From the sequence record PQ850627.1: DNA of 43,096 bases; one strand, given 5' to 3'. A model generated the notes under the pieces. That model did not search any database. It saw only the letters and a list, made by a program, of their open reading frames with translations, and had not been told where the DNA came from. Numbering within the stretch: the stretch's first letter is position 1; every line of letters begins with the position of its first letter. Made by a program: the position numbers and the translations under genes. This document shows, piece by piece, positions 4,909 to 41,054 of the stretch. The DNA comes from Escherichia phage SonjaBuckley_Bas74.

Positions 4909-5111
4909 CAACGGAATCTTGTGTTTAAATCCTGCTCATGGACAACCCTCAGAACAGTGTCATAATCCCCGTATCTTCCAGGTTCAAATATATCTAATGC
5001 CTTGTAAGCAGACATTGCGTCAGGGAAAACCTGCAGAACCTTTTTAACCCGGCACAAGTCACCGTCGAACTCTTCATCGAACTCTTGAACTACTTCGCAA
5101 ATTGCATACAT
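4908..5111 (-). CDS. hypothetical protein (antisense moron, 67 aa)
   Basis: ATG with strong SD AGGAGGTG 5 nt upstream; own promoter TTGCAC-N17-TACTAT at 5139-5167; terminator hairpin at its 3' end. Confidence 0.55.
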   Translation of the reverse strand: MYAICEVVQEFDEEFDGDLCRVKKVLQVFPDAMSAYKALDIFEPGRYGDYDTVLRVVHEQDLNTRFR

Positions 5112-5138
5112 TTTTCACCTCCTGTTTAAGTTAACTGA

Positions 5139-5167
5139 ATAGTACCCTATTATATTGGGGTGTGCAA
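5139..5167 (-). promoter_or_regulatory. sigma70-type promoter TTGCAC-N17-TACTAT for moron 4908-5111
   Basis: Minus-strand reading TTGCACACCCCAATATAATAGGGTACTAT; 31-bp core identical to copy at 13662-13692. Confidence 0.55.
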
Positions 5168-5218
5168 ACTATTTATTTACGTATTCCAGTTATTCCTCGA
5201 ATTGTAAATGTTGGAATA

Positions 5219-5234
5219 AACTATTCGAATAGTT
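5219..5234. promoter_or_regulatory. perfect 16-bp palindrome AACTATTCGAATAGTT (operator candidate) abutting TTGACT
   Basis: Exact inverted repeat; half-site ACTATTC recurs in several promoters of this genome; overlaps a TTGACT -35-like hexamer at 5233-5238. Confidence 0.45.
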
Positions 5235-5441
5235 GACTTTTCACTAAAAATATGATAAGCTCCACCTGAGCTTGTGAAGTATGAACAAGCGACCGCGGCG
5301 CGGGCAGGTAACGGAGCGGGACGTAAGTCCTGAGTGCAGTTACGCTGACGCGTTCGGAAGGGCCATACTCTATTGCTTGTGTAAAAAGTAACTGGTTTAC
5401 TGAGATTACGCCGTTTCTATGTTTAAATGATAAGGACTAGC

Positions 5442-5468
5442 GCCCCGCTTTATGGCGGGGCTTTACTT
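5442..5468 (+). terminator. terminator-like hairpin upstream of spanin genes
   Basis: GCCCCGC-TTTATG-GCGGGGC followed by TTTACTT. Confidence 0.5.
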
Positions 5469-5485
5469 ATCGAGAAAGGGGAAAC

Positions 5486-5872
5486 ATGAATCTTAAAGCA
5501 ACTGTCGTAGCAGGAGCATGTTTCATCATCCTGGTTTACGCACACGGCATCTACCAGTATCGCAGCGGATGGAACGAAGGCCGGGCTAATCTCGTTTCGC
5601 AGCAACAGCAGAAAGCACAGGCTGAGTTAGCGAAGAAAACACAACGGCAGCAGCAGGATGAATCGAAGGCCGCCGCCGCTGACAACGAAGGCAAGACGAA
5701 ATCAGAGGTGATTACCCGTGAAGTCGTTAAGTACATTAAAACGCCTGGTCGCAGCGTGTGCACTTTTGACCCTGAGCGCGTGCAGCTCAAGTCCCGCGCC
5801 GTCGCCAACGCCAATTCCATCCCCGGATACGACGATGATGCAGCCGCCGTGCAAACTGGCGCAGCCAAGTAG
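5486..5872 (+). CDS. i-spanin (Rz-like)
   Basis: N-terminal TMD ATVVAGACFIILVYAHGIY followed by Q/K/E-rich coiled-coil region; contains an overlapping +1 frame lipoprotein ORF. Confidence 0.65.
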   Translation: MNLKATVVAGACFIILVYAHGIYQYRSGWNEGRANLVSQQQQKAQAELAKKTQRQQQDESKAAAADNEGKTKSEVITREVVKYIKTPGRSVCTFDPERVQLKSRAVANANSIPGYDDDAAAVQTGAAK

Positions 5873-13441: not shown

Positions 13442-13633
13442 TCACTTCTCGTTAACATTCGAGTTGCAGGCCCAGATTAAAATAAATACCCACGGCAGCA
13501 GAACCCAACCAAGAAACAGATTAGCCATGAATATCGCTAATTTCGCTTTATGGTTGCGGAAGTATGCAACCAAGAAAGGTGCGAAATAGGCGAGCAGTGC
13601 AAACAGAATTAAGGAAACTGGTAAACTTGACAT
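13442..13633 (-). CDS. superinfection immunity-like small membrane protein
   Basis: Likely start at second ATG (AAGGGG SD); sequence YFAPFLVAYFRNHKAKLAIFMANLFLGWVLLPWVFILIWA resembles the Imm superinfection-immunity family pattern; two predicted TMDs. Confidence 0.55.
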   Translation of the reverse strand: MSSLPVSLILFALLAYFAPFLVAYFRNHKAKLAIFMANLFLGWVLLPWVFILIWACNSNVNEK

Positions 13634-13663
13634 TTTAAACCCCTTCATTGTTGGTGTAAGCGA

Positions 13664-13692
13664 ATAGTACCCTATTATATTGGGGTGTGCAA
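13664..13692 (-). promoter_or_regulatory. sigma70-type promoter TTGCAC-N17-TACTAT for Imm-phosphoesterase moron operon
   Basis: Identical 31-bp sequence to 5137-5167; located 16 nt upstream of ORF start at 13648. Confidence 0.55.
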
Positions 13693-24045: not shown

Positions 24046-25466
24046 TTCTTACCTCGTCTCTTCATGTAGTTAAGCAACTCTTCCTGTACCGATTTCTTCT
24101 CGTCGGTACGCGCGGCAACAACCTCGTCCAGCGTGTCTTTAGCGACTATGTGATAAAGGAACACCGGGCGCTCGTGCCCAGCTTGTTTCTGACGGACCGG
24201 GCCTATACGCTCGACAACCTGCAAATAGTGCTCAAGGTTCCAGCCTTGTGAGATGAATGCCAGATGATGTCCGCCGTCTTGTAAATTCAAACCATGGCCC
24301 GCTGACGCAGGATGTACGCATAAGATTTCTACTTCACCGCGGTTCCACGCTTCCATCTGCTTATTACCCCTGACACCTTTGGCAAAGGCCTGTGCTTGTG
24401 GGAATCGCTTAAGGATGCGCTCCAGTTCGTGCTTGAACTGATAGGCCACCAGTAACGGTGCCCCCTGTAACTCCTCAACAATGGACTCGAGCGCATCAAG
24501 TTTCGTGTCGTGCACTTTCTCCCATTCTTTGGTTGATTCGCCATCTGGCCCCGATACATACACGGCACCGGAGGCAATCTGTAGGCACTTCGACGTCTTC
24601 GCCGCAGCGTTAGCCGCTTCAACTTCTCCGCTTTCCAGTTCCGCGAATAACTTCTCCTCCATATCGATGTACGCCTGACGTGCTTTCTTCGGCAGGTCGA
24701 TTTCAACCGGCACAATAATCGGCGCTTCACACCCGAACCACTCGGCGGCGTCAATCGTGAGACTAATGTCCTTCATCTTCTGGTGAATTTCATTATCCGC
24801 ACCCGGGCGTGCGTGGTATTCACGGGCCATCGCAGATTTCCCTTTCTGTACCGAGTTAAACCAGCGGTCGGTGAATGCTGTGTACGATGACCCCAGGCGC
24901 TCGCCTGCGTCGATAAACCAGTTCTGCCCCCACAAGTCCTTGAGGCCGTTTGGTGACGGCGTGCCAGTCAGGTTAATGAAACGCTTAACTTTGCCAAATG
25001 CCACTTTACTAAGCGCCTTTGCCCTCTTGCTGCCGCCTGAACGGCTGCGGAATGACTTCAGTTTCGTGCTTTCATCGGCAACGATAACGGTAAAAGGCCA
25101 GTCGTCTTTGCCGTAGTAGTCAATCAACCACTCTATTACCTCATAGTTCGTGCACACCACGTTAGCGTCCGACTCCAGCGCCGCGATGCGGCGCTTCTCT
25201 GAACCGGTCGCGTCTACGACACGCAGACATGGGAAATTCCACTTAGTTTGTTCCGCCGGCCATGTGCCTGATGCAACGCGCAACGGGGCGAGGATTAACA
25301 CGCGGTCCTCTTCTGTAAGCTGCCCGTTGCGGAACAGTCGGTTTAATGTCCACAGTACGCTGCCAGTCTTCCCGGCGCCCATGCTCGCCCAAATATTACA
25401 GCGATGGTGCCGCAACATGAACGAAGTCATTAGCTTCTGGTATTCGCGCCTTTGAAACTTACTCAT
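24042..25466 (-). CDS. SNF2-like superfamily 2 DNA helicase
   Basis: Walker A GAGKTG, motif II VIVADESTKLK, motif III LTGTPSPNGL. Confidence 0.75.
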   Translation of the reverse strand: MSKFQRREYQKLMTSFMLRHHRCNIWASMGAGKTGSVLWTLNRLFRNGQLTEEDRVLILAPLRVASGTWPAEQTKWNFPCLRVVDATGSEKRRIAALESDANVVCTNYEVIEWLIDYYGKDDWPFTVIVADESTKLKSFRSRSGGSKRAKALSKVAFGKVKRFINLTGTPSPNGLKDLWGQNWFIDAGERLGSSYTAFTDRWFNSVQKGKSAMAREYHARPGADNEIHQKMKDISLTIDAAEWFGCEAPIIVPVEIDLPKKARQAYIDMEEKLFAELESGEVEAANAAAKTSKCLQIASGAVYVSGPDGESTKEWEKVHDTKLDALESIVEELQGAPLLVAYQFKHELERILKRFPQAQAFAKGVRGNKQMEAWNRGEVEILCVHPASAGHGLNLQDGGHHLAFISQGWNLEHYLQVVERIGPVRQKQAGHERPVFLYHIVAKDTLDEVVAARTDEKKSVQEELLNYMKRRGKK

Positions 25467-26253
25467 TTACGGCCCCTATGAACGCCTTTATAAATTCAGC
25501 GGCTACTTGCGGGACGATAGCATTGCCGTAACCGCGCAATCGTCCCACTCTGGCGGGTACCCCATTAGCCAGCGGGAATGCGCCGGGTTCAACTGGCCTG
25601 AATTTTCCATCCCGGCATCCGAGCCAGTCAGCATCTGACCAGAACCCGTTAGGCGGATTGGCTGTGTCAGAGATGCCTCTGTTTGCAGATTGTGGCCCCC
25701 GTTCCTGCCCTGATGGCCTGCTCCCGCCGAGTTGTTCGCACACGGTGTTGGCCAGTTGCTGCGCTCCGAAGAACAATCGATTCCTTTTGTGCGGTGCGCC
25801 GACGCTACAAGCTGGGAGTACGGCAAACCCGACGGCGTAGTCTTCTCTTTCCAGGTGAGTTTGTAAATCGCACATCCACGATTTTGCAATTGCTGCCGCA
25901 ACCTGCTCCCCAAAGATGACTGGAGGGTGGCACTCGCTGATGAGGTCGAGGAGCACAGGTGCGAGGTGTCTCTGGTCGAACTGTCCGAGTTGCTTTCCTG
26001 CCGTGCTAAACGGTTGGCAAGGCGGACTTCCCGTCCATATAGGCGTATCTTCAGAAACTCCCGCAAGTCTGAGCGCGAGAGGCCAGCCGCCGATACCCGC
26101 GAAAAAATGACACTGGGTGAACCCGTCAAGGTCTTCTGGCTTAACTTCGGTAATGCTTCTTTCATCTACAACTCCAAAAGGTATGTGACCCTGTTTTATC
26201 AACTCACGCAGCCACGCGGCTGCGCCTTTATCCCATTCGTTGTAATAGTTCAT
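25459..26253 (-). CDS. DNA (cytosine-5)-methyltransferase, short form
   Basis: FAGIGG (motif I), PPCQPFS (catalytic PCQ motif IV), [16 protein letters not shown]; only 264 aa. Confidence 0.6.
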
Positions 26254-26441: not shown

Positions 26442-26757
26442 TTCTAAATTCCTTATATTGTTGGGGTATGTGCTTACTATAATAGTCTGCTATTAGGGTG
26501 TCAATCTGTTTTATCGAACCAACGACAAAAACATTTGCGCCACGTTTACGTATACGCTCGTGTTCCCGTAGCTGGTGCGGGTCTGGCTTAGTGTTTTCGT
26601 CTTTCTTCACCTCGACGAACCAGACGATGCCGCCGGGTAGAATTGCCAGCAGGTCAGGAGCGCCTGAACGTCCTTCGTAGGAAAGTTTACGAACGAGGCC
26701 ACCAATGGCCTCGAATCGCTCTTTTGCGTATTTCTGGATGCGGCCCTCTTTAGTCAT
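26425..26757 (-). CDS. VRR-NUC domain nuclease
   Basis: GAPDLLAIL...VWFVEVKK...HQLREHERIRKRGANVFVV matches the VRR-NUC pattern (PD-(D/E)XK-type core). Confidence 0.6.
   Translation of the reverse strand: MTKEGRIQKYAKERFEAIGGLVRKLSYEGRSGAPDLLAILPGGIVWFVEVKKDENTKPDPHQLREHERIRKRGANVFVVGSIKQIDTLIADYYSKHIPQQYKEFRNETRI
26476..26504 (-). promoter_or_regulatory. promoter TTGACA-N17-TATAGT (internal to 3' end of VRR-NUC gene)
   Basis: Minus-strand reading TTGACACCCTAATAGCAGACTATTATAGT; perfect -35, near-consensus -10, 17-bp spacer. Confidence 0.5.
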
Positions 26758-26988: not shown

Positions 26989-27120
26989 TCATTCCAGCAC
27001 CCACATATAAATTGCGATGAACATGCCCAATATGGCAACCATCATGCCGTATTGTCCCTCGTGACAGTAGACACCGGCGGCAAATCCCGCCAGTACCGCG
27101 ATAATCAGTTTACTTGGCAT
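26989..27120 (-). CDS. small hydrophobic membrane protein (43 aa)
   Basis: ATG with AAGGAGA SD; two hydrophobic segments. Confidence 0.4.
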   Translation of the reverse strand: MPSKLIIAVLAGFAAGVYCHEGQYGMMVAILGMFIAIYMWVLE

Positions 27121-27805
27121 CTCTACATTCTCCTTCAGGCCACCTATTAGGAAAAGACGGTATATGTGAAACTTCTCTCGCCGCTTTTATTCTTTTAATG
27201 GTGGGACCTATCTCCGTAACCATTTCAATGAATGTAAACCGGTGTCCTCTGGTAAGATTACATGTCTGACAACAAGAAACGCAGTTAGATACTATGTGCC
27301 CGCTTGTATTATCTATGCGGTCTACCCCGACTTTTGTAGTGCTTCCGCAATAATGGCATGGCTGTGATATTAGTTTAATAACGCTTTCCAGTGTTAAATC
27401 GCAGATAAGCCCTTTTCCTGAATCTGCTCTTTTGTATCCTAACAAAAGCGCGTACGCCCGCGTCCTTTGGTCCTTATTCACCAGTTCCCTGCGTTGCTTG
27501 TTGAGACACTCCCGGCAATCTTTCCTGATATGAGAGCCATTACTTTTATTTCCTTTCCTGAAGTTTTCCTCTGTTAAAGGTTTTACCTCCCCACACTTTC
27601 TGCATTTAACAGGCTTCCCAGTGAAAACATACCAAGGGCTTTCTCGTCTGGATTTACCTTGTAATTTAAGTTTTTCGTCATACTTTTCCTTCCTGTTAGC
27701 ATTTACACACTCTTTACACCAGCGTTGCAGCCCGAGGCGCGTTGACTTTGAAAAATACTCTGTAGTCGCCGGTTTATCTTCGCCGCATCTTGAACACTTT
27801 TTCAT
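27110..27805 (-). CDS. HNH homing-type endonuclease
   Basis: Cys pairs CSRCG, CKEC, CRKCG, CREC plus CHYCG...GVDRIDN...H core; ATG at 27805 with GGAG SD (ORF track TTG start at 27817); inserted between polymerase terminator and nuclease genes. Confidence 0.7.
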   Translation of the reverse strand: MKKCSRCGEDKPATTEYFSKSTRLGLQRWCKECVNANRKEKYDEKLKLQGKSRRESPWYVFTGKPVKCRKCGEVKPLTEENFRKGNKSNGSHIRKDCRECLNKQRRELVNKDQRTRAYALLLGYKRADSGKGLICDLTLESVIKLISQPCHYCGSTTKVGVDRIDNTSGHIVSNCVSCCQTCNLTRGHRFTFIEMVTEIGPTIKRIKAAREVSHIPSFPNRWPEGECRDAK

Positions 27806-27815
27806 TAATAACTCC

Positions 27816-27850
27816 AAAAAAAAATACCGACATAGCCATTATATCGGTAT
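27816..27850 (-). terminator. intrinsic terminator after DNA polymerase gene (minus strand)
   Basis: ATACCGA/TCGGTAT stem followed on the minus strand by a run of nine T. Confidence 0.7.
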
Positions 27851-30808: not shown

Positions 30809-30837
30809 ACTATAATAGCTAACTATTCAGGTGTCAA
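30809..30837 (-). promoter_or_regulatory. promoter TTGACA-N17-TATAGT upstream of SSB gene
   Basis: Minus-strand reading TTGACACCTGAATAGTTAGCTATTATAGT; spacer contains AATAG-N5-CTATT inverted repeat. Confidence 0.55.
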
Positions 30838-32264: not shown

Positions 32265-32533
32265 GCTCTGTTCTCCCACTGGTCAATTAAATGCCGTGTC
32301 TTGTGGTCGCAATGTAAGGCCCATCCATACATCGACTCGAAGACATAAAAGTCAGGCTTGGCGAAAGTTGTGCGCTTAATCTGTGACACGTGACGGCCTA
32401 TATCTTTAGGCCGTGGTACTTTTCCTAAGTACGCCATCTCTTCCATCTGGTGCGCACCGGACGGAGCACGCAATAGCCATAGCGCCTCTGTGTTATCCCG
32501 CCTGTCGACGGCTCGGTAGAGTTGGTAAATCAT
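32261..32533 (-). CDS. hypothetical protein (90 aa)
   Basis: ATG start; ATGA coupling to downstream nuclease gene. Confidence 0.5.
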   Translation of the reverse strand: MIYQLYRAVDRRDNTEALWLLRAPSGAHQMEEMAYLGKVPRPKDIGRHVSQIKRTTFAKPDFYVFESMYGWALHCDHKTRHLIDQWENRA

Positions 32534-32576
32534 AATTCCGACCCTCAGTTAAAGCGGCCCGAAGGCCGCGAGATAG

Positions 32577-33077
32577 TTATTCTTCTTCGAAATACTTGTT
32601 CTTGATTGCTGTCAGGCGTTCCAGGTATTCAGCCAGGTCTTCGTCTTTAATCGCTGCAATCTTCATTTTCTTACCTGTGAACTCTTCCAGCAGTTCATCA
32701 GAATCATCGCACGCGGCATCGCTCGGACCTTCGTTAATTGCATCGTCGATAGCCTGAATCTGGTCGCGCAGAGACTTATAGTCTACTTCTTCTTTCTCTT
32801 CTTCCGGCTCTGGCGTCGTTTCCTCTACTTTAGCTTTACGCGGCTTGCGTTTTGGCTTCTCTTCCTCCGCCGGTTTAGTGTCAACTACGTCTTCACCTTC
32901 AACCGGGATTTCTTTTGTTGCTTCTTCAGCGCACTCAGCTACCGCTTCTTTGGTGTACGATACCGTCTCTACTTCCAGCGGCGTGGCAACCTGAACAACT
33001 TGTTTCGCACTGTTCGCGGCAATCAGTTCGTGCGCAACTACGAAACGTTCCAGTAATACTAAGAATTTCTCTAACAT
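32577..33077 (-). CDS. highly acidic hypothetical protein, first gene of minus-strand early operon
   Basis: GAGGAGAG SD; 166 aa with long D/E-rich segments and a short basic patch KPKRKPRKAK; immediately downstream of TTGACA-N17-TATAGT promoter. Confidence 0.5.
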   Translation of the reverse strand: MLEKFLVLLERFVVAHELIAANSAKQVVQVATPLEVETVSYTKEAVAECAEEATKEIPVEGEDVVDTKPAEEEKPKRKPRKAKVEETTPEPEEEKEEVDYKSLRDQIQAIDDAINEGPSDAACDDSDELLEEFTGKKMKIAAIKDEDLAEYLERLTAIKNKYFEEE

Positions 33078-33108
33078 TTGTTTCTCTCCTCTCGTTTGGT
33101 ATGGGCTA

Positions 33109-33137
33109 ACTATAATAGCGAACTATTCACATGTCAA
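33109..33137 (-). promoter_or_regulatory. promoter TTGACA-N17-TATAGT for minus-strand early operon
   Basis: Minus-strand reading TTGACATGTGAATAGTTCGCTATTATAGT; differs at three positions from the 30809-30837 copy. Confidence 0.55.
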
Positions 33138-33176
33138 TGGGCTTTTCTAAAATAATTAATATGGTACTATTCACAT
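33122..33176 (+). promoter_or_regulatory. pair of 11-bp direct repeats ACTATTCACAT spaced 44 bp (operator candidates) with weak plus promoter for HTH gene
   Basis: Exact repeats at 33122-33132 and 33166-33176; second copy overlaps TACTAT -10-like hexamer 32 nt upstream of the regulator ATG. Confidence 0.4.
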
Positions 33177-33201
33177 ATCAACTGACTAAGGAGTAATTGA
33201 C

Positions 33202-33417
33202 ATGCAACCATCTGAACTAGGCATCCGTGTAGAACAACGCCGCAAAGAACTCGGCATCTCCCAGCGCCGTTTGGCGGCCCTGACCGGCGTTTCCCAGGGC
33301 GCGATTAACCAACTGGCACTTGGAGTAACTCAGGACGTCCGCCCGGCAACGCTGTTCAAACTGGCGGAAGTTCTGGAAGTAGACGCCAAGTGGCTGGCGT
33401 TAGGTGAAGGGGCTTAA
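33202..33417 (+). CDS. XRE/Cro-type helix-turn-helix transcriptional regulator
   Basis: 71 aa; LGISQRRLAALTGVSQGAINQL is a classic HTH; AAGGAG SD; lone plus-strand gene convergent with primase, followed by terminator. Confidence 0.7.
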   Translation: MQPSELGIRVEQRRKELGISQRRLAALTGVSQGAINQLALGVTQDVRPATLFKLAEVLEVDAKWLALGEGA

Positions 33418-33431
33418 AGCCCCTTTCTTTT
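33409..33431 (+). terminator. intrinsic terminator after HTH regulator gene
   Basis: GGGGC-TTAAA-GCCCC followed by TTTCTTTTT. Confidence 0.6.
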
Positions 33432-33434
33432 TAC

Positions 33435-35657
33435 CTATTCCAAATCCTCCTCTGTCACCACCAGCATCTCATTTGGTTCGTATAGTGTCTTCGGCCTTAA
33501 TCTATCCCCTATTCTTTCGGGTATACGATATGTTCTCGGTACTACTTCGCCGTTAGCATCGCAACCAAGCATTAGTTCTCCATCTTTCAACATTTTATCA
33601 AGATGGGTGTTAGTCACAGAGAAGTCACCGGAACGAGCCACTATCTGCTGCTGAGTAAAACCGCGACCTGTGTCATCTGACTGTTGCAGGTCTTCCAGTG
33701 CCGAAAGTATTGACTCCTTCCTTACTTCATCCCTGCCGCGTTTAACTTCTTCCTTTACTTTTTGCTTACCTTCTTTCGTCAACCCTTCTTCCCGCTCTTT
33801 CTCCTCGTCAGTTTTGAACGGCTCGAAACCCCACGGCATCAACACAAGCGCCTTGTGTGGTTCAGGAAGGTCCAGGTTTACGATTGTGCCGTATTCTTCT
33901 GTGCCCCCCAGGAACTCAACCGCACGGTACTCTTTCGGCGGCGGAGCTTCGCGGAACTGCACAGACTCCAGCACCATGCCAACCGTTTTCTGTTGAGGAC
34001 CGTGCTTAAATTTCGAGTGGTATACGTTTATTTGACGGTCGGTTGCACGTTCGATTGTCAGTTCCACGTCAACACCCGCATACAGCGCCCCACTGCCGCG
34101 TGCTTTCTTTCCACCCTTCGGCGTATGGTGGACAACGCCTACTGCGGCTTTAGTTGCATCGCGTACTTCTTTCAGAATGGCGATAACTTTACCCATGCCG
34201 ATTGCTGTTGATGAACTGTTCTCGTCGAACTTATCAATCGTCAGTGCCAGGGTCTGGTTAAGGGTGTCGAACGCAACCATGCCAATTGGCTCGTCGCCAG
34301 CAGTTTCGCGCATTAACTTAATCAGGCTTTTAAGTTTGCCGACTTCGCCCATATCGATGACGTGTACATAATCTTTACCTTCCCCGCCATATTTAGCCGC
34401 TAGTGCATCAATACGGGTGCGTGTAGCTGCGCCACCCTCACCATCAATATAGAAATGGTGGCAACGCTGGGTATCCGCCCCCGCAAACCTGTACCCGGCG
34501 GCGCTGAGGTACATCATCCCCAGCGTATAGAACGATTTGTACGTGCCAGATTCCCCGACGATATCCCAGATACAATCCGACGGCATGTACCCCTCAACGA
34601 CGAAATCAGCCTTTACCGGCTCCGGTAACTCGTCCTCCTCTGAGTCCTCGTCGTCTTCCAGGTCGTCGAGGCTGCAAGTTACTGGGTCCTCGTTCTCTGT
34701 GCGGTGTAGTTCTTCAATCTCTTCTTCCGGTAAATCAGGCAGAGCCGCACGAATGCTGTTAATGCTGATAGGTTGCTTATCTATGTTAAGCTCGTCGGGT
34801 AGGCCACACATACGCAGGGCCAAATGCTGCCTACGGTTAAGCTCGGTGCAAGCGCCGTTGTTTGTATGCTGGCAGACAAAGCGCACTTCTTTACCGTCGA
34901 GCATTATGCTGGTGGAGCCCTTGCCTGTATGCAGATGTTCGTTAGGGCATGGCACTTCGTACCCGCGCCCGGAAGATAAAGCGTCAAGGCCAAGCTCGGC
35001 TTCGCAGAAGTGTGCTATATCCGCGTTAAGCCCATGCTCATCAGCGGCAAGTGTTTTAGCCTCACGCTTACGCAACCCCATCTCTTCGGCTTTCTTGATG
35101 TACCGCTCAGCACGGATAACACGCCCTTCTGTAACCGTTATCTTCGACTCTTTATGCGGCAGGTAGATAAGGCGGTTGCCGTCTTCTGTGCAGTGGTCGC
35201 GCAACGCTTCGTCTATTTCTAACTCTGCACAAATAGCACGTTGCACCATCCACGCGTCGTTAGAGTTAAACGGCGTGCGAGCTGGAACCAGAACGCGGAA
35301 AGCGTAATCTCCATTTTTACATGCGTGCTGATGCGATGCCGTTGTGTGCAGAATATTGAAGAACGGCGCGTTCTTGAATTTGCGTGTCAGGTCGCGGTAC
35401 TGAGTACGGTTGAGATGGTCGAAATCGAACTTAACCACACTGTCTTCCAGGATAGCGTTTTTACGGCGACCACCAACAGGCGCAATAGCTTTCTGTTTAA
35501 TCTTGGCAGCGTCGTACTCTTCCTTAGTCCATGACGGGTCCACGGATAAACGCTTCGATGTATCGCAGACATACTCGACAAACTGCTCCAGCGGCATTTC
35601 ACGCGCTACAGGGTTTTTATCGAATGTGTTACGCAGCGTTGCAAAAACAATATTCAT
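33435..35657 (-). CDS. DNA primase-helicase (primase domain plus RecA-like ATPase)
   Basis: 740 aa; Walker A GESGTYKS; N-terminal region with Cys/His cluster; synteny with PolA, SSB and nuclease genes. Confidence 0.6.
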   Translation of the reverse strand: MNIVFATLRNTFDKNPVAREMPLEQFVEYVCDTSKRLSVDPSWTKEEYDAAKIKQKAIAPVGGRRKNAILEDSVVKFDFDHLNRTQYRDLTRKFKNAPFFNILHTTASHQHACKNGDYAFRVLVPARTPFNSNDAWMVQRAICAELEIDEALRDHCTEDGNRLIYLPHKESKITVTEGRVIRAERYIKKAEEMGLRKREAKTLAADEHGLNADIAHFCEAELGLDALSSGRGYEVPCPNEHLHTGKGSTSIMLDGKEVRFVCQHTNNGACTELNRRQHLALRMCGLPDELNIDKQPISINSIRAALPDLPEEEIEELHRTENEDPVTCSLDDLEDDEDSEEDELPEPVKADFVVEGYMPSDCIWDIVGESGTYKSFYTLGMMYLSAAGYRFAGADTQRCHHFYIDGEGGAATRTRIDALAAKYGGEGKDYVHVIDMGEVGKLKSLIKLMRETAGDEPIGMVAFDTLNQTLALTIDKFDENSSSTAIGMGKVIAILKEVRDATKAAVGVVHHTPKGGKKARGSGALYAGVDVELTIERATDRQINVYHSKFKHGPQQKTVGMVLESVQFREAPPPKEYRAVEFLGGTEEYGTIVNLDLPEPHKALVLMPWGFEPFKTDEEKEREEGLTKEGKQKVKEEVKRGRDEVRKESILSALEDLQQSDDTGRGFTQQQIVARSGDFSVTNTHLDKMLKDGELMLGCDANGEVVPRTYRIPERIGDRLRPKTLYEPNEMLVVTEEDLE

Positions 35658-35782
35658 TTCTTTTTCTCCGCACGTTCTAAGGCTTCCTGCATACGGCGCA
35701 TTGCGCGGTTCATCTTTACCGGCGCGAAGAAATCGGCGCCGTGTTTCTGTCGGCGCAGCTGTGGAACTATTAACTTCGTCAT
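35654..35782 (-). CDS. hypothetical small basic protein (42 aa)
   Basis: ATG with AAGGAT SD; stop overlaps primase start (ATGA). Confidence 0.35.
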   Translation of the reverse strand: MTKLIVPQLRRQKHGADFFAPVKMNRAMRRMQEALERAEKKK

Positions 35783-35851
35783 TGTATAATCCTTGTGCTT
35801 ACTTTGATGATTTGTGCTTTGGCCCCGACGTTCTTGCGTTGGGGTTTCTTT

Positions 35852-36142
35852 TTACCGTTTAGCCAACCCTTCCAGCAAATTTTTATACTCTTCAAAATAT
35901 TCCTCGACCAAATCATCGCCGAAATAGAAGTCGATATACTCGAGATTATCTCTTACGTTAAGCGATGCCGACATGGTGCTTAGTTGGCGTAAGCTAATTA
36001 GCTTCATTTCTGTTTCTACGCAGAAAGGCCGGTAGGTATCAAGATGGCAAGAGATATTGAAGCATAAAGCGAACTCTCCGGCCACGGAGTGAACCATATA
36101 CACTTCGTTTTCTGCTTTATTGTGGAAAATTACGCCTTTCAT
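35852..36142 (-). CDS. hypothetical protein (96 aa)
   Basis: ATG with AAGGAGA SD; ATGA coupling to upstream HTH gene. Confidence 0.5.
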   Translation of the reverse strand: MKGVIFHNKAENEVYMVHSVAGEFALCFNISCHLDTYRPFCVETEMKLISLRQLSTMSASLNVRDNLEYIDFYFGDDLVEEYFEEYKNLLEGLAKR

Positions 36143-36321
36143 TTCACGTTCTCCTTAATCCATGCTTCGACTTTATTACGGTCAAATGTTCCCGGTAAAC
36201 GGCGGCCCATAACCTTAATACAGCAGTCAGGGAATTTGCCGCTGCGCAACCAGTTATTAATGGTCTGACGTGTCACCCCGATACGCTCGGCTACCTCATT
36301 CTGTGTCATGTAATGTTGCAT
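36139..36321 (-). CDS. AlpA/excisionase-type HTH DNA-binding protein
   Basis: Likely ATG start at 36321 with AGGGGAT SD (ORF track GTG at 36435); MTQNEVAERIGVTRQTINNWLRSGKFP matches the HTH_17 pattern; first gene downstream of TTGCTT-N17-TATACT promoter. Confidence 0.55.
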   Translation of the reverse strand: MQHYMTQNEVAERIGVTRQTINNWLRSGKFPDCCIKVMGRRLPGTFDRNKVEAWIKENVK

Positions 36322-36352
36322 TTTTATATCCCCTGTTTGTTTAGTGAAACCG

Positions 36353-36381
36353 AGTATAGGATAGCGGGAATGTAAAAGCAA
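36353..36381 (-). promoter_or_regulatory. promoter TTGCTT-N17-TATACT for AlpA-like HTH operon
   Basis: Minus-strand reading TTGCTTTTACATTCCCGCTATCCTATACT, about 30 nt upstream of ATG at 36321. Confidence 0.45.
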
Positions 36382-36418
36382 CCAATCCCTGCAATATTTA
36401 ATCTTTACAAAAAAGTTA

Positions 36419-36448
36419 TTGAAAGTTCTTGACACATGTTTGTATAAT
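36419..36448 (+). promoter_or_regulatory. promoter TTGAAA-N18-TATAAT driving a non-coding transcript
   Basis: Consensus -10 TATAAT at 36443-36448; divergent from the minus promoter at 36353-36381. Confidence 0.45.
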
Positions 36449-36455
36449 GGTTTTG

Positions 36456-36675
36456 GGACTTGTATATATTACGGAGTTGACGAACCCTCCCCGAGGGATT
36501 CGTCAACCCCTCCCAGACAGCTGAGATGCTTGCCTTGTGGTTTAAGGATAAGTGTATCTAAATCTCATTTAAAGAAGTAACCCGCTGAAATATCTACTGT
36601 TTCTTAATGTGCCGTAGATTCGCAACCGTAAAAATGTAACGATTATTGGGCAGGCTTAGGGCCTGCCCTTTAGTT
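36456..36675 (+). ncRNA. candidate small non-coding RNA (about 220 nt)
   Basis: Promoter upstream, strong 5' hairpin at 36476-36507, intrinsic terminator at 36648-36675, no ORF with SD (only an 11-codon ATG frame). Confidence 0.3.
36648..36675 (+). terminator. intrinsic terminator closing the candidate sRNA
   Basis: GGGCAGGC-TTAGG-GCCTGCCC followed by TTTAGTT. Confidence 0.6.
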
Positions 36676-36740
36676 ACCAAGTAATAAGAATAAAGGCACA
36701 ACAGTTTCGAAAGAATCACAACGGCAACGTAACTATTCTC

Positions 36741-36769
36741 TTGCACACCCCAACATAATAGGATACTAT
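36741..36769 (+). promoter_or_regulatory. sigma70-type promoter TTGCAC-N17-TACTAT for plus-strand small-gene cluster
   Basis: TTGCACACCCCAACATAATAGGATACTAT; 29 of 31 positions identical to the moron promoter repeat. Confidence 0.55.
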
Positions 36770-36803
36770 TCACTTATCGAAACGAGACAGAGGAGTGAAG
36801 GTT

Positions 36804-36989
36804 ATGTTTAAGAAGGGTCAGTTGGTTCGTAATAGATTGAGCGGCGATTTATTTACAGTAATAGAATCAAATCTAATGTGGTTTGGTTTTGTGGAGGTTA
36901 ATAGCGTAGCGGGTTTCGGTAAAGGGTTACTCCGTAAATGTGATTTAGAACTCATCGGCAACAATTTTAAATTCAAAGGGGCGAAGTGA
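36804..36989 (+). CDS. hypothetical protein (61 aa)
   Basis: ATG with AGGAGTGAAGG SD (ORF track GTG at 36795); first gene downstream of TTGCAC-N17-TACTAT promoter. Confidence 0.45.
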   Translation: MFKKGQLVRNRLSGDLFTVIESNLMWFGFVEVNSVAGFGKGLLRKCDLELIGNNFKFKGAK

Positions 36990-37348
36990 TGGATAAGCAA
37001 GTTTTACGAACAGCCGCTGAAGGCGCTATTGAGAAATATGGGGACGAATGGTTTGGGACTGGAAGTCAAATTTGCACCGTTCACAAGTCAAAGATTAAGC
37101 TTATATCTTATGCCAGCCCTAATCTCGTAATTGAATTGCTGGATGAAATAGCAGCCCTAACAGAGGAGAATATTAAACTTAATCAAAAAATTGATAAGTT
37201 ATTAATATGGCCCGGTATAGAGTTTGATTCGTCAGCGTGGGGTTTCTCTAACAATGATGGTGATGCCGCGCTTGAATTAATATGCGACCACACGGCATCG
37301 GATCCTGATGCTCGTGCCGACGACTCTGAGGGAGGTTGCCGTAAATGA
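36986..37348 (+). CDS. hypothetical protein (120 aa)
   Basis: ATGA coupling to upstream gene; uninterrupted frame. Confidence 0.5.
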   Translation: MMDKQVLRTAAEGAIEKYGDEWFGTGSQICTVHKSKIKLISYASPNLVIELLDEIAALTEENIKLNQKIDKLLIWPGIEFDSSAWGFSNNDGDAALELICDHTASDPDARADDSEGGCRK

Positions 37349-37536
37349 GAATTCGAATAACTGATGTTGATTATGCGGACCCGCGCGACGGTGACGATTT
37401 GCCGCTTAGTTACTGGGGTGTTGCTCTTGGTGGTGAGTTTGAAGTGGACGACGTAGCTGACGGTACATTCGTAATTGAATGTGACGCCGGGTATGTAGTT
37501 GTGTACCCCTGTGAATGCGAAGTCCTGGAGGACTAA
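37345..37536 (+). CDS. hypothetical acidic protein (63 aa)
   Basis: ATGA coupling; D/E-rich. Confidence 0.45.
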   Translation: MRIRITDVDYADPRDGDDLPLSYWGVALGGEFEVDDVADGTFVIECDAGYVVVYPCECEVLED

Positions 37537-37539
37537 GTT

Positions 37540-37683
37540 ATGAGAGAAGCATTTGAACGGTGGGCCGTCGTTGAGGGTCTGCCCGTTAACAAGGGTTCGA
37601 AGAAAGAGTACCTGAACGCTAAGACGCGTCTCGCGTGGCGGGCGTGGAAGGCTGGTATGCAAGCTGTGATGAATAAGGGGTGA
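37540..37683 (+). CDS. hypothetical protein (47 aa)
   Basis: ATG with GGAGGA SD; uninterrupted frame to TGA; under ORF-track cutoff. Confidence 0.4.
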   Translation: MREAFERWAVVEGLPVNKGSKKEYLNAKTRLAWRAWKAGMQAVMNKG

Positions 37684-37686
37684 TTT

Positions 37687-37887
37687 ATGAGTCAGTGGAT
37701 TAAGTGTAGTGAGCGGATGCCGGAAGAAGGCGAGATGGTCCTTACTGCGTTTCGTGGTGTTGTTAGGTCGGGCGTGTGTAAGGCTGTAGATGTTATCGGC
37801 GGTAAGTGTTTTGTAAGTGAGATTGACAGATGCCACGGGACACCGGCGACCCACTGGATGCCGTCACCAAGGCCGCCGGAACAATAG
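37687..37887 (+). CDS. hypothetical protein, DUF551-like C-terminus
   Basis: 66 aa ending THWMPSPRPPEQ, resembling the conserved C-terminal motif of the DUF551 phage protein family; followed by strong terminator. Confidence 0.45.
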   Translation: MSQWIKCSERMPEEGEMVLTAFRGVVRSGVCKAVDVIGGKCFVSEIDRCHGTPATHWMPSPRPPEQ

Positions 37888-37910
37888 TTTAAGATTTTAC
37901 TGAGTGACTT

Positions 37911-37948
37911 ACGCTGCTACACAGCAGCGTATCATTTTTCTCATTTTT
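37911..37948 (+). terminator. intrinsic terminator after 37687-37887
   Basis: ACGCTGCT-ACAC-AGCAGCGT followed by ATCATTTTTCTCATTTTT. Confidence 0.65.
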
Positions 37949-38001
37949 GTTCTATTTCACCAAACGCAACAATCGAAGCGACTATTGCAGGAGATGCAAC
38001 A

Positions 38002-38100
38002 ATGAAACTGAATGACATCGTAACCTGGACCGGTAGAAACGGAGAAAAGCGATTCGGGCTTATTGTTGCGTCAAACGGCAACAAGTACCGTGTTATGTGA
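38002..38100 (+). CDS. hypothetical small protein (32 aa)
   Basis: ATG with AGGAGA SD 8 nt upstream; short frame to TGA. Confidence 0.3.
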   Translation: MKLNDIVTWTGRNGEKRFGLIVASNGNKYRVM

Positions 38101-38179
38101 TGGCGTCAGTGGGCACGACGCCCGAGGTACTACTGGATTAGTGGAGAACGATTATCTTTAAAACACCAATAAAATTTAC

Positions 38180-38208
38180 TTGCACACTGTGATAGAATAG
38201 GCTACTAT
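38180..38208 (+). promoter_or_regulatory. sigma70-type promoter TTGCAC-N17-TACTAT
   Basis: TTGCACACTGTGATAGAATAGGCTACTAT followed by leader ACAAACGAGAGGAGAG and ATG at 38240. Confidence 0.5.
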
Positions 38209-38239
38209 TCATTTACACAAACGAGAGGAGAGACAGAAG

Positions 38240-41003: not shown

Positions 41004-41025
41004 ATCTATTTTCTGCAATGACTAG

Positions 41026-41054
41026 TTGACTATTACCTACGACCCTATTATATT
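41026..41054 (+). promoter_or_regulatory. promoter TTGACT-N17-TATATA after endolysin terminator
   Basis: TTGACTATTACCTACGACCCTATTATATA followed by leader CAACGAGAACGGAG and ATG at 41088. Confidence 0.45.

Follow-up and report, generated by a model that had tools for sequence, protein, structure and literature searches.

The two short repeats that lie between divergent genes of Escherichia phage SonjaBuckley_Bas74 belong to a 14-bp dyad, AATAG-N4-CTATT, which overlaps about ten predicted promoters of the phage, and the gene beside them encodes a 71-aa XRE-family protein of the Cro type. The anatomy of this arrangement, its conservation and the family of the protein are established by the results below. 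Our preferred, though tentative, interpretation is that a small phage repressor, acting as a dimer, uses the box as its operator; the XRE protein is the leading candidate for this repressor. Because the repeats are boxes that overlap about ten promoters, the Cro-like gene, as judged from sequence, is more likely to encode a regulator that shuts off transcription across the genome than to act as a local switch. Both the motif (as a promoter found by PHIRE) and the gene (annotated as a repressor or Cro) are already public, and the finding is a tidy and unsurprising one, a Cro-like regulator kept in a virulent phage, that is, ordinary phage biology.

The DNA analysed, hereafter the window (43,096 nucleotides, PQ850627.1), is an almost complete genome of Kagunavirus (Guernseyvirinae). 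Kagunavirus and Jerseyvirus are phages of E. coli and Salmonella that are isolated especially often; Guernseyvirinae are advocated for therapy and food safety, and also as small chassis for synthetic biology. The group is called virulent, or "strictly lytic", and reports of lysogen-like behaviour in it are disputed. The genera compared were Kagunavirus, Jerseyvirus and Cornellvirus (for example, phage Shemara), together with Serratia phage Scapp. Promoters are, throughout, predictions from the sigma-70-type consensus.

The divergent intergenic region

The intergenic region (33078-33201, 124 bp) extends from the ATG of a minus-strand gene for a 166-aa protein to the ATG of the gene for the 71-aa protein. 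A preliminary description of this DNA had proposed a divergent regulatory region here, with promoters, repeats and a terminator; we recovered each of these elements where it had been placed, and operator-like sequences indeed overlap both predicted promoters. The region is a compact back-to-back pair of predicted promoters, the stronger one leftward and the weaker one rightward. The 166-aa gene (32577..33077, minus strand, from the ORF list) stands at the head of a leftward exonuclease/recombination operon. Its product matches PHROG 3127 (1e-67), of unknown function, and has no Pfam match; near-identical records call it 'hypothetical' or '13.88 kDa late protein'.

The strong minus-strand promoter proposed here is present: the promoter scan finds TTGACA-N17-TATAGT at 33109..33137 on the minus strand, with 11 of 12 positions fitting the consensus. 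We call this promoter class B; its 29-nt architecture is repeated at 30809-30837 and 26476-26504. On the plus strand, the scan gives TACTAT (33165..33170) as the -10 hexamer of the predicted XRE promoter, and this hexamer overlaps the second copy of the 11-bp repeat, as had been noticed before. The predicted XRE promoter shares its -10 context, TACTATTCA, with four promoters that we call class A (TTGCAC-N17-TACTAT), but has a poor -35 (CTTTTC); an alternative predicted XRE promoter, TTCACA-16-TAAAAT, lies at 33126-33153. A Shine-Dalgarno sequence, AAGGAG (33188..33193, plus strand), conserved in relatives, precedes the ATG of the XRE gene by 8 nt. The region also holds a 9-bp inverted repeat, CATGTCAAT/ATTGACATG (33130-33138 and 33196-33204), which is not conserved in relatives and was therefore treated as chance. 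An Rfam search of 32900-37000 at E <= 1 found no RNA element.

A dyad box at promoters throughout the genome

The box AATAG-N4-CTATT is the top palindrome of the genome. It occurs in seven exact copies versus about 0.04 expected, and allowing at most one mismatch gives 13 matches (0.99 ± 0.92 expected; 0 of 100 shuffles reached 13), with three of the one-mismatch boxes associated with promoters. At about ten sigma-70-type promoters a box coincides in part with the -10, the -35 or the sequence between them. The dyad is not specific to 33078-33201, and, since it marks about ten promoters, any switch would be genome-wide rather than a local autoregulatory module.

Box 1 (33114..33127; this and the other boxes are listed without strand) is the perfect AATAG-CGAA-CTATT. 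It sits within the leftward class B promoter of the intergenic region, in its spacer, and ends in the T that is the first base of that promoter's -10 hexamer. In 25 distinct relatives its arms are invariant and its centre has six variants. Perfect boxes are found likewise in the class B promoters of the SSB/DNA-polymerase operon (30814..30827) and upstream of methylase/helicase genes (26481..26494). In class A promoters the perfect box lies over the -10, as in that of the rightward small early genes (36757..36770), in a second rightward one (38196..38209), in that of the superinfection-immunity (Imm) gene (box 13663..13676; gene 13442-13648, minus strand) and in that of a 67-aa gene on the minus strand within the late region (5138..5151). 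Box 2 (33158..33171), AATAT-GGTA-CTATT, has one mismatch and overlaps the -10 of the XRE promoter; the imperfection is kept, its arms AATAT and CTATT being invariant in nine distinct Kagunavirus sequences. A further one-mismatch box, ACTAG-TTGA-CTATT (41021..41034), overlaps the -35 of the late-operon promoter TTGACT-17-TATATT, and a similar box, AATAG-TTGA-CTTTT, lies at 5228-5241; the Jerseyvirus counterpart of the late-promoter box is AATAG-TTGA-CTAGT.

The register of the box relative to the promoter varies: class B promoters have 4 nt between the -35 and the box, class A promoters 10 nt and the Imm promoter of Jerseyvirus 7 nt, and in late promoters the box overlaps the -35. In three promoter families the major-allele frequency is 1.00, 0.99 and 1.00 in the arms versus 0.84, 0.79 and 0.70 in the centre, and invariant arms with a variable centre are seen across Kagunavirus and Jerseyvirus. 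Cornellvirus carries a variant, AATAC-N4-CTAAT, which is found in both orientations relative to transcription; in Shemara it has nine matches at up to one mismatch, versus 2.2 ± 1.25 expected. The AATAG and AATAC boxes show reciprocal absence between the genera. The XRE gene of Shemara is flanked by an exact variant box in the leftward promoter and a one-mismatch box over the -10 of the XRE promoter. From its registers, invariant arms and orientation, the box appears to behave as an element distinct from the core promoter.

The motif has been published before. In fBC-Eco01 (Kagunavirus), PHIRE gave the 'phage promoter' consensus tgAATAGTa-ccTATTat-T (PMC9825357), and in vB_EcoS-Golestan seven PHIRE motifs were termed promoters (PMC7203180). 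These are the same sequence element as the box, at the same loci, and the published consensus is matched at intergenic sites here. Both papers assign the motif to a phage RNA polymerase, but these phages encode no such gene (none is annotated in complete relatives), and all motif copies lie within sigma-70-type -35/-10 hexamers with 17-18 bp spacing. The dyad, its variable register, the genus-level variant and a link to an HTH protein are not mentioned in these papers.

The 71-aa XRE protein

The 71-aa XRE/HTH_3 gene (33202..33417, plus strand) is monocistronic and convergent with the primase-helicase gene. It had been credited with its own terminator, and GAAGGGGCTTAAAGCCCCTTT followed by a T-run (33406..33432, plus strand) fits this claim: the stem is 9 bp (33406-33426), the stop codon lies in the loop, the minus direction has no T-run, and a terminator is likewise annotated at this position in the fBC-Eco01 record. 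The protein matches Pfam HTH_3 (PF01381) over residues 11-65 with 49.7 bits versus a cutoff of 23 (E = 3.9e-13). Among solved structures, its closest relatives are 434 Cro and the N-terminal domain of the 434 repressor; the match to 434 Cro in the PDB (E = 8.5e-6) pairs XRE residues 6-68 with residues 4-64. The AF2 model (pLDDT 81) is a compact, all-helical HTH fold, and a Foldseek search with it had HipB, C.BclI, C.AhdI, 434 repressor/Cro, SinR and P22 c2 among its matches, with TM 0.58-0.69 and probability 1.00 for HipB, C.BclI, 434 repressor/Cro, SinR and P22 c2. The 434 relatives, matched over the full length of the protein, and the predicted fold, which is shared with dimeric binders of palindromes, support the earlier suggestion that the HTH protein is Cro-like. 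In the single-sequence model, the C-terminal part is drawn as one long helix.

The protein is 93-100% conserved in 37 Kagunavirus loci, and, among the DNA-binding proteins compared, it is the only one found in Kagunavirus, Jerseyvirus and Cornellvirus; an ArsR-like protein is absent from the window. The XRE protein of Cornellvirus, the genus with its own box, is 40% identical. In RNA-seq of Kagunavirus K1B4, a 'specific DNA binding' gene, 004, which lies beside AAA/primase gene 005, is expressed (PMC12645636), and by gene order we infer that it is the XRE gene. In Cornellvirus and Scapp the XRE gene heads the primase operon and is divergent from the exonuclease-SSB-polymerase operon; by comparison, this placement may be the ancestral layout, with the gene in the classic position of an early regulator. 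The surroundings of the gene give no sign of other roles of small XRE proteins that we looked for: there is no co-transcribed toxin, as in type II toxin-antitoxin systems (HipB/HigA-like), the neighbours being the primase and the opposite-strand 166-aa gene, and no endonuclease or methylase adjoins the gene, as for a restriction-modification controller. The C-5 methylase gene (25459-26253) is 7 kb away and has another promoter.

Several comparisons between genera, however, count against the XRE protein as the binder of the box. The Kagunavirus and Jerseyvirus proteins are 48% identical and differ where residues of the 434 proteins contact bases (G33S, A34L, Q37H), yet their boxes are identical; the recognition helices of Jerseyvirus and Cornellvirus are more alike, yet their boxes differ. 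The Cornellvirus box is asymmetric, a poorer fit to a symmetric homodimer, and Jerseyvirus has its perfect boxes elsewhere, the one beside the XRE gene being imperfect (AATCG) and conserved as such. Overall, the comparison of three XRE types (Kagunavirus, Jerseyvirus and Cornellvirus) with two box types leaves their co-variation ambiguous.

Other candidate readers of the box

A serious rival, though we consider it unlikely, is that the boxes are operators of a second protein, a 60-aa HTH_17 protein (MerR/Xis-like winged helix) made early, with the XRE protein having a different target or the role of an antagonist. The gene (36139..36321, minus strand; Pfam HTH_17, 33.1 bits versus a cutoff of 27) has a predicted promoter, TTGCTT-17-TATACT, without a box. 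Its product is 82% identical between Kagunavirus and Jerseyvirus, the genera with the identical box, while Cornellvirus, the very genus that lacks the AATAG box, has no homologue; the protein is confined to 442 Kagunavirus/Jerseyvirus records. It is present in all 442 of them, and XRE counts per organism are at least as high, so that no natural knockout of either gene is obvious. The model fold of the HTH_17 protein matches BldC, Xis and RacA, and a 14-bp inverted repeat is the binding site of RacA, which suits the box. However, small proteins of this fold mostly polymerise on direct repeats rather than bind short palindromes, as BldC, Xis, RdfS and P2 Cox do, and the protein has no evident dimerisation element. 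Moreover, Cornellvirus, which lacks the protein, still has a related box at the same promoter positions. In K1B4, gene 008, with an HTH domain, is one of four 'early' genes (PMC12645636) and, by gene order, was taken as the HTH_17 gene.

It is distinctly unlikely, in our estimate, that the box is only a cis feature of the promoters, which duplication of promoters has multiplied and which the host's RNA polymerase or another host factor recognises, with no dedicated phage regulator binding it and the XRE protein unrelated. The right arm of the box always supplies bases of a -10 or -35 hexamer, extended consensus sequences are common among phage early promoters, the discordance of XRE divergence with box sequence fits an XRE-independent box, and two papers called the motif a promoter (PMC9825357; PMC7203180). 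But a feature of this kind accounts poorly for dyad symmetry with invariant arms and a free centre, for four registers and, in Cornellvirus, both orientations, or for the left arm, which plays no part in the recognition of class A and class B promoters by sigma-70. Among recognition sequences of host regulators, the ArgR, Fur and MarA boxes resemble the box in a half-site alone.

Lysogeny and carrier state

The preliminary description had seen no integrase and no long CI-like repressor, and this is true both of the window and of near-identical annotated genomes: no integrase is annotated in relatives, 590B and Shelanagig lack any annotated long repressor, the other ORFs tested showed none, and no lysogeny module was found elsewhere, the window being essentially the whole genome. 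None of 5,426 complete E. coli genomes matched the window sequence, and the class B promoter pattern found nothing in 185,579 species-representative genomes, where a scan with the primase gave only a MAG fragment and a contaminant-like scaffold.

Against this stand a few observations that would suit integrase-free immunity. A lysis-lysogeny switch has been proposed for Jerseyvirus SGP-C, with its HTH genes called Cro-like and CI-like; this phage forms turbid plaques, PCR-positive, superinfection-immune clones that release phage were obtained, and an episome was proposed (PMC8790156). A complete Kagunavirus genome was also deposited as a circular 44-kb 'plasmid' from a blood isolate of E. coli (CP088689.1), and global silencing would need boxes on nearly all promoters, as is seen. 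One regulator would then shut nearly all promoters while being expressed itself from an unboxed or weakly boxed one. We regard it as quite improbable that the two HTH proteins and the boxes provide integrase-free global silencing by which Guernseyvirinae persist as a repressed episome in some cells, and as very improbable that the XRE protein, the HTH_17 protein and the boxes form an immunity system holding the silenced phage in a carrier state or pseudolysogeny. The empty search of E. coli genomes and the stray fragments among species-representative ones speak against the immunity system, no partition or plasmid-maintenance genes are annotated, the fBC-Eco01 and Golestan genome papers report no lysogeny genes (PMC9825357; PMC7203180), and in the SGP-C evidence a carrier state is not separable from contamination or resistance.

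The direct repeats

The two copies of ACTATTCACAT reported for the intergenic region are exact (33122-33132 and 33166-33176), and at up to one mismatch the 11-mer has three matches in the window versus 0.59 expected. A repeat search extended the repeat to 25 nt, with copies TAATAGCGAACTATTCACATGTCAA (33113..33137, plus strand) and TAATATGGTACTATTCACATATCAA (33157..33181, plus strand) that are 84% identical and 44 bp apart. The second copy holds a weak minus-strand promoter-like match, TTGATA-18-AATTAT, and looks as if the class B promoter unit had been duplicated here and the duplicate had then diverged. Each 11-mer is the right half of one 14-bp dyad box. Its last three bases, CAT in copy 1, vary among close relatives, even by a 1-nt indel, which identifies them as promoter spacer and, with the variable length, rules out the 11-mer as a functional unit; it is the dyad, and not the 11-bp direct repeat that had been taken for the operator, that is conserved. 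Dimeric XRE proteins recognise dyads and are not known to bind direct repeats spaced 44 bp. A private XRE operator was sought in the intergenic regions of Kagunavirus, Jerseyvirus, Cornellvirus and Scapp and none was conserved, the only conserved elements being the promoters, the box and a leader, CATATC..AAC. Although the repeats are exact, statistically unexpected and placed at both promoters beside a gene for a Cro-like protein, we thus hold it very unlikely that they are private operators of a local Cro-like autoregulatory switch, given their variable end, the Jerseyvirus positions that have only CTATTA in common, the palindrome at about ten promoters and the dyad-binding habit of the family.

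Discussion

We infer that a protein binds the boxes, and likewise its identity, the direction in which it regulates and the order in which promoters respond. On the preferred interpretation, the leftward promoter TTGACA-17-TATAGT would drive the exonuclease/recombination genes, and the weaker rightward promoter, with its -10 TACTAT, would drive the 71-aa protein. As it accumulates, the XRE protein would fill the perfect boxes first, turning down the early and replication promoters as Cro does in lambdoid phages. The promoters with one-mismatch boxes, that of the XRE gene itself and two of late operons, would be occupied last, and this late filling may bring about autoregulation and a move towards late expression. 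Of the Cro-like autoregulatory or early-to-middle switch originally envisaged, the Cro-like protein and the divergent promoters stand; with the box at about ten promoters, any such switch would not be confined to this locus. If one 71-aa protein and one 14-bp box do govern almost all promoters, the timing of gene expression in these phages would be easy both to test and to engineer, and mutation of boxes or deletion of the regulator should alter timing, burst size or the turbidity of plaques. Such control would be relevant, too, to the disputed lysogen-like reports in this "strictly lytic" group.

The proposal for SGP-C concerned the same orthologous genes, with the XRE gene as 'Cro' and the HTH_17 (Cox-like) gene as 'cI'; it was based on annotation and plaque phenotypes and defined no operators (PMC8790156). 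The sequence evidence here does not confirm lysogeny, and it attributes the boxes to neither the XRE nor the HTH_17 protein.

The closest likeness is to phage 434. Its Cro has 71 aa, the same length as the XRE protein; its operators (OR1-3) are 14 bp, ACAAG-N4-CTTGT, a dyad laid out 5-4-5 like the box, in which the outer bases are conserved and the centre is free to vary, and they likewise overlap divergent early promoters. In contrast to 434, the half-site here is AATAG rather than ACAAG, the sites are candidates from sequence, the XRE gene is monocistronic in Kagunavirus, and both a CI partner and a tripartite operator are absent. We found no divergent partner repressor with an oligomerisation or S24 domain, no integrase, no prophage among the E. 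coli genomes searched and no clustered tandem operators; two boxes lie 44 bp apart and about eight distant promoters are boxed. Controller proteins of restriction-modification systems (C.BclI, C.AhdI) are also small XRE dimers of similar size and fold that use paired dyads over their own promoter for concentration-dependent control, but here no restriction-modification gene pair adjoins the regulator and the boxes extend beyond its own promoter.

The scattering of sites over about ten promoters is more reminiscent of the stoperators of mycobacteriophage L5 gp71 and the operators of P1 C1, where many short sites genome-wide serve one regulator. Those sites are asymmetric, the L5 stoperators lie in transcribed regions and block elongation, and both systems serve stable lysogeny in temperate phages; unlike them, the boxes described here are dyads on core promoters of a phage without an integrase. 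As with gp71 and C1, however, the scattered copies could let one small regulator control most of the transcription units of the phage.

Results

We found the 124-bp intergenic region between a minus-strand 166-aa gene (32577-33077) and the plus-strand HTH gene (XRE; 33202-33417) at 33078-33201, as the preliminary description had it. ACTATTCACAT is present there in two exact copies (33122-33132 and 33166-33176), a direct repeat that a repeat search extended to 25 nt at 84% identity, with 44 bp spacing, and promoter prediction returned the claimed minus-strand promoter, TTGACA-17-TATAGT, at 33137-33109 (11/12). The TACTAT hexamer lies at 33165-33170, and the 71-aa ORF beyond it has a ribosome-binding site (AAGGAG), encodes a protein that clearly belongs to HTH_3, and ends at a terminator of its own, with a 9-bp stem and the stop codon inside the loop. 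This terminator (33406-33435) has a T-run on the plus strand only, and therefore leftward transcription of the primase operon may read antisense through the XRE gene into the operon of the 166-aa gene.

What did not hold was the 11-bp direct repeat as the unit. A core-motif search located TACTATTCA exactly at four sites in the window, and comparison of their contexts revealed the true unit, a 14-bp dyad, AATAG-N4-CTATT (the box). Nor is the repeat private to a local switch, since the box has seven exact copies genome-wide (at 5138, 13663, 26481, 30814, 33114, 36757 and 38196), all of them within predicted sigma-70-type promoters. With up to one mismatch there are 13 matches against 0.99±0.92 expected, a number reached by none of 100 shuffles, and the box ranked top in an unbiased census of all palindromes and dyads with 5-bp arms (7 copies against ~0.04 expected). 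One-mismatch boxes included, three layouts occur: the box covers the -10 in four exact promoters (class A; TTGCAC-N17-TACTAT), lies in the spacer of three promoters, all of leftward replication and including that of the intergenic region (class B; TTGACA-N4-AATAG-N4-CTAT/TATAGT), or, with one mismatch, covers the -35 of two plus-strand promoters of the late region (41021-41034 and 5228-5241). The first 11-bp copy is the right arm of box 1 (33114-33127) plus promoter spacer; the second combines the right arm of box 2 (33158-33171), which is imperfect (AATAT-GGTA-CTATT), with the bases immediately downstream, and most of the -10 predicted for the HTH gene falls within this arm. Perfect boxes are found on early and replication promoters, and imperfect ones on the XRE and late promoters.

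The same logic recurs in another divergent promoter region (5111-5486): a perfect box (5138-5151) serves a minus-strand 67-aa gene, and the one-mismatch box at 5228-5241 belongs to the promoter directed toward the spanin and capsid genes. It also holds a perfect 16-bp palindrome, AACTATTCGAATAGTT, at 5219-5234, with the box half-sites in the opposite arrangement. Antisense within the late region, a T4 Imm-type superinfection immunity gene (13442-13648, minus strand) has its own boxed class A promoter.

Over the 3.2 kb around the intergenic region (32500-35700), Escherichia phages vB_EcoS_XY2, 590B and BASEL Bas70-76 share 98-99% identity with the window; this stretch matched 442 Guernseyvirinae records, from which the window is, judged by its sequence, a Kagunavirus genome that is nearly complete (43.1 kb, against 41-45 kb in relatives). 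The intergenic region hardly varies among 37 IMG/VR Kagunavirus loci, including those in which another gene takes the place of the divergent left-hand one. The three bases following ACTATTCA in the first 11-bp copy vary among these loci, including a 1-nt indel, as promoter spacer should, and box 2 is kept in its imperfect AATAT form. In the promoter families of the 166-aa, SSB and Imm genes (25, 14 and 15 distinct sequences, respectively) the box arms are invariant (major-allele frequency 1.00, 0.99 and 1.00) and the centres vary (0.84, 0.79 and 0.70), with 6-7 different centres per family. In Jerseyvirus Shelanagig the box is extended to TAATAG-N4-CTATTA at five orthologous promoters, and the Jerseyvirus Imm promoter, which has another -10, carries the box in a third register (TTGCAT-N7-AATAG-N4-C/TATTAT). 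With its invariant arms, free centre and movable register, the box has the marks of a dyad bound by protein and separate from the hexamers that RNA polymerase reads.

The exact box is absent from the Cornellvirus Salmonella phages Shemara and vB_SenTO17 (0 and 1 copies, respectively, with up to one mismatch), which bear AATAC-N4-CTAAT at equivalent promoters. Shemara has three exact copies of this variant; with up to one mismatch it has nine, where 2.2±1.25 are expected and none of 100 shuffles gave as many. In vB_SenTO17 the two counts are two and six. The variant occurs in either orientation, over the spacer or the -35. The Shemara XRE gene heads a rightward operon that includes the primase (35330-38169); an exact variant box in the divergent leftward promoter and a one-mismatch box covering the XRE -10 reproduce the two-box layout of the window. 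The divergent arrangement of XRE-primase against exonuclease-SSB-polymerase is found again in Serratia phage Scapp (3992-6737). Gene order in the window is the standard one: plus-strand late genes (1 to ~23.9 kb), a leftward replication block (helicase, C-5 methylase, VRR-NUC, PolA, SSB, DUF2800 exonuclease and the 166-aa gene), the lone plus-strand XRE gene, a leftward primase block with a second HTH gene (HTH_17) at its head, and lastly small early genes, which are rightward, lysis genes and terminase. Given the position of XRE at the head of the primase operon in Shemara and Scapp, an inversion of the primase block seems to have left the XRE gene on its own in Kagunavirus and Jerseyvirus, and the lineage with the inverted block appears also to have gained the HTH_17 gene.

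A gene for a 235-aa homing endonuclease, endonuclease VII/HNH-like (27110-27817, minus strand), lies in a low-GC patch (43%) with VRR-NUC on one side and DNA polymerase on the other; it is probably a mobile insertion, because it is missing in phage 590B. At 36344-36680 the predicted promoter of HTH_17, which has no box, faces away from a near-consensus promoter on the plus strand, TTGAAA-18-TATAAT (36419-36448). The transcript predicted from the latter is ~230 nt, to a strong terminator (36648-36668). The region (folding z = -4.5; long hairpin at 36473-36510) had no Rfam match and is not alignable in Jerseyvirus; it may encode a Kagunavirus-specific small RNA or short ORF.

The annotations of 590B and Shelanagig list neither an integrase nor a long CI-type repressor, and the window ORFs tested yielded none, in agreement with the preliminary description. 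There were no matches in 5,426 complete E. coli genomes, and stray fragments only in species-representative genomes. A complete Kagunavirus (92.6% identity over the query; XRE and HTH_17 proteins 100% identical) was deposited as CP088689.1 ('pC16EC0033-2'), a 44,086-bp record classed as a circular 'plasmid' of a Korean E. coli isolate from blood, in whose assembly it stands; it may reflect either a carrier state or contamination. NZ_JACVEL010000022.1 (Taishania pollutisoli scaffold22), 19 kb in a Bacteroidota assembly with Jerseyvirus-like genes and two perfect boxes (identity to the window: primase 53%, XRE 48%, HTH_17 82%), almost certainly represents contaminating phage DNA. Jerseyvirus SGP-C is reported to form turbid plaques and to give immune clones releasing phage, which is weak evidence for lysogen-like behaviour, and its two HTH genes were explicitly named Cro-like and CI-like (PMC8790156); thus, the idea of a switch in a lytic phage is already in print.

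Discussion

From the reading of this locus as a local Cro-like autoregulatory or early-to-middle switch, we retain a Cro-like regulator beside operator-like sequences with no lysogeny module, and abandon the 11-bp unit and the local scope. The Cro-like regulator and the 14-bp dyad, a candidate operator, would form a genome-wide system, which is directly testable. Seven PHIRE 'phage promoters' of fBC-Eco01, with the consensus tgAATAGTa-ccTATTat-T, were wrongly ascribed to phage RNA polymerase (PMC9825357), and seven PHIRE motifs were reported for Golestan (PMC7203180). GenBank names the XRE gene 'transcriptional repressor', 'DicA', 'Cro' or 'XRE'. In the coarse, unsynchronised RNA-seq time course of Kagunavirus K1B4, HTH gene 008 is one of four early genes and the 'specific DNA binding' gene 004, adjoining AAA/primase gene 005, falls in the middle class (PMC12645636); gene order suggests that 008 is HTH_17 and 004 is XRE. 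New relative to this literature are the dyad nature of the PHIRE motif, its placement at three sites on promoters, the contrast between early and replication promoters, with perfect boxes, and those of XRE and the late genes, with imperfect ones, the variant box at genus level and the XRE gene's ancestral place in an operon.

As binder of the boxes we tentatively favour XRE, with less than even confidence. The geometry of the site suits it, its position is the classic one for an early regulator, and it is the sole DNA-binding protein, among those compared, common to all three genera; Cornellvirus, moreover, retains the box system without HTH_17, and its XRE and its box both differ. However, between Kagunavirus and Jerseyvirus the XRE proteins share 48% identity, with differences at three positions that correspond to 434 contacts, although the boxes of the two genera are identical; the recognition helices of Jerseyvirus and Cornellvirus are more alike, yet their boxes differ; and the box beside the Jerseyvirus XRE gene is a conserved imperfect one. 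These three observations would instead favour HTH_17, an unlikely binder in our estimate, whose conservation is about equal to that of the box: the protein (60 aa; 36139-36321, minus strand) is 82% identical in Jerseyvirus, absent from Cornellvirus and found only in 442 Kagunavirus and Jerseyvirus records. It passes Pfam HTH_17, and in predicted fold it is similar to BldC, Pukovnik Xis, RdfS and RacA, all small winged-helix proteins of the MerR/Xis-like kind. Boxes without any dedicated phage binder are quite improbable, and the remaining probability lies with another factor or with variants among these explanations.

The best solved relatives of XRE, our preferred binder, are 434 Cro (also 71 aa) and the N-terminal domain of the 434 repressor, aligned over about the whole length, and its AF2 model (single-sequence, pLDDT 81) matches HipB, C.BclI, 434 Cro and repressor, SinR and P22 c2, all of which are dimeric dyad binders. 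The 434 operator is 14 bp long, its outer bases conserved and its central 4 bp free, and this is the geometry of the 14-bp box of the phage.
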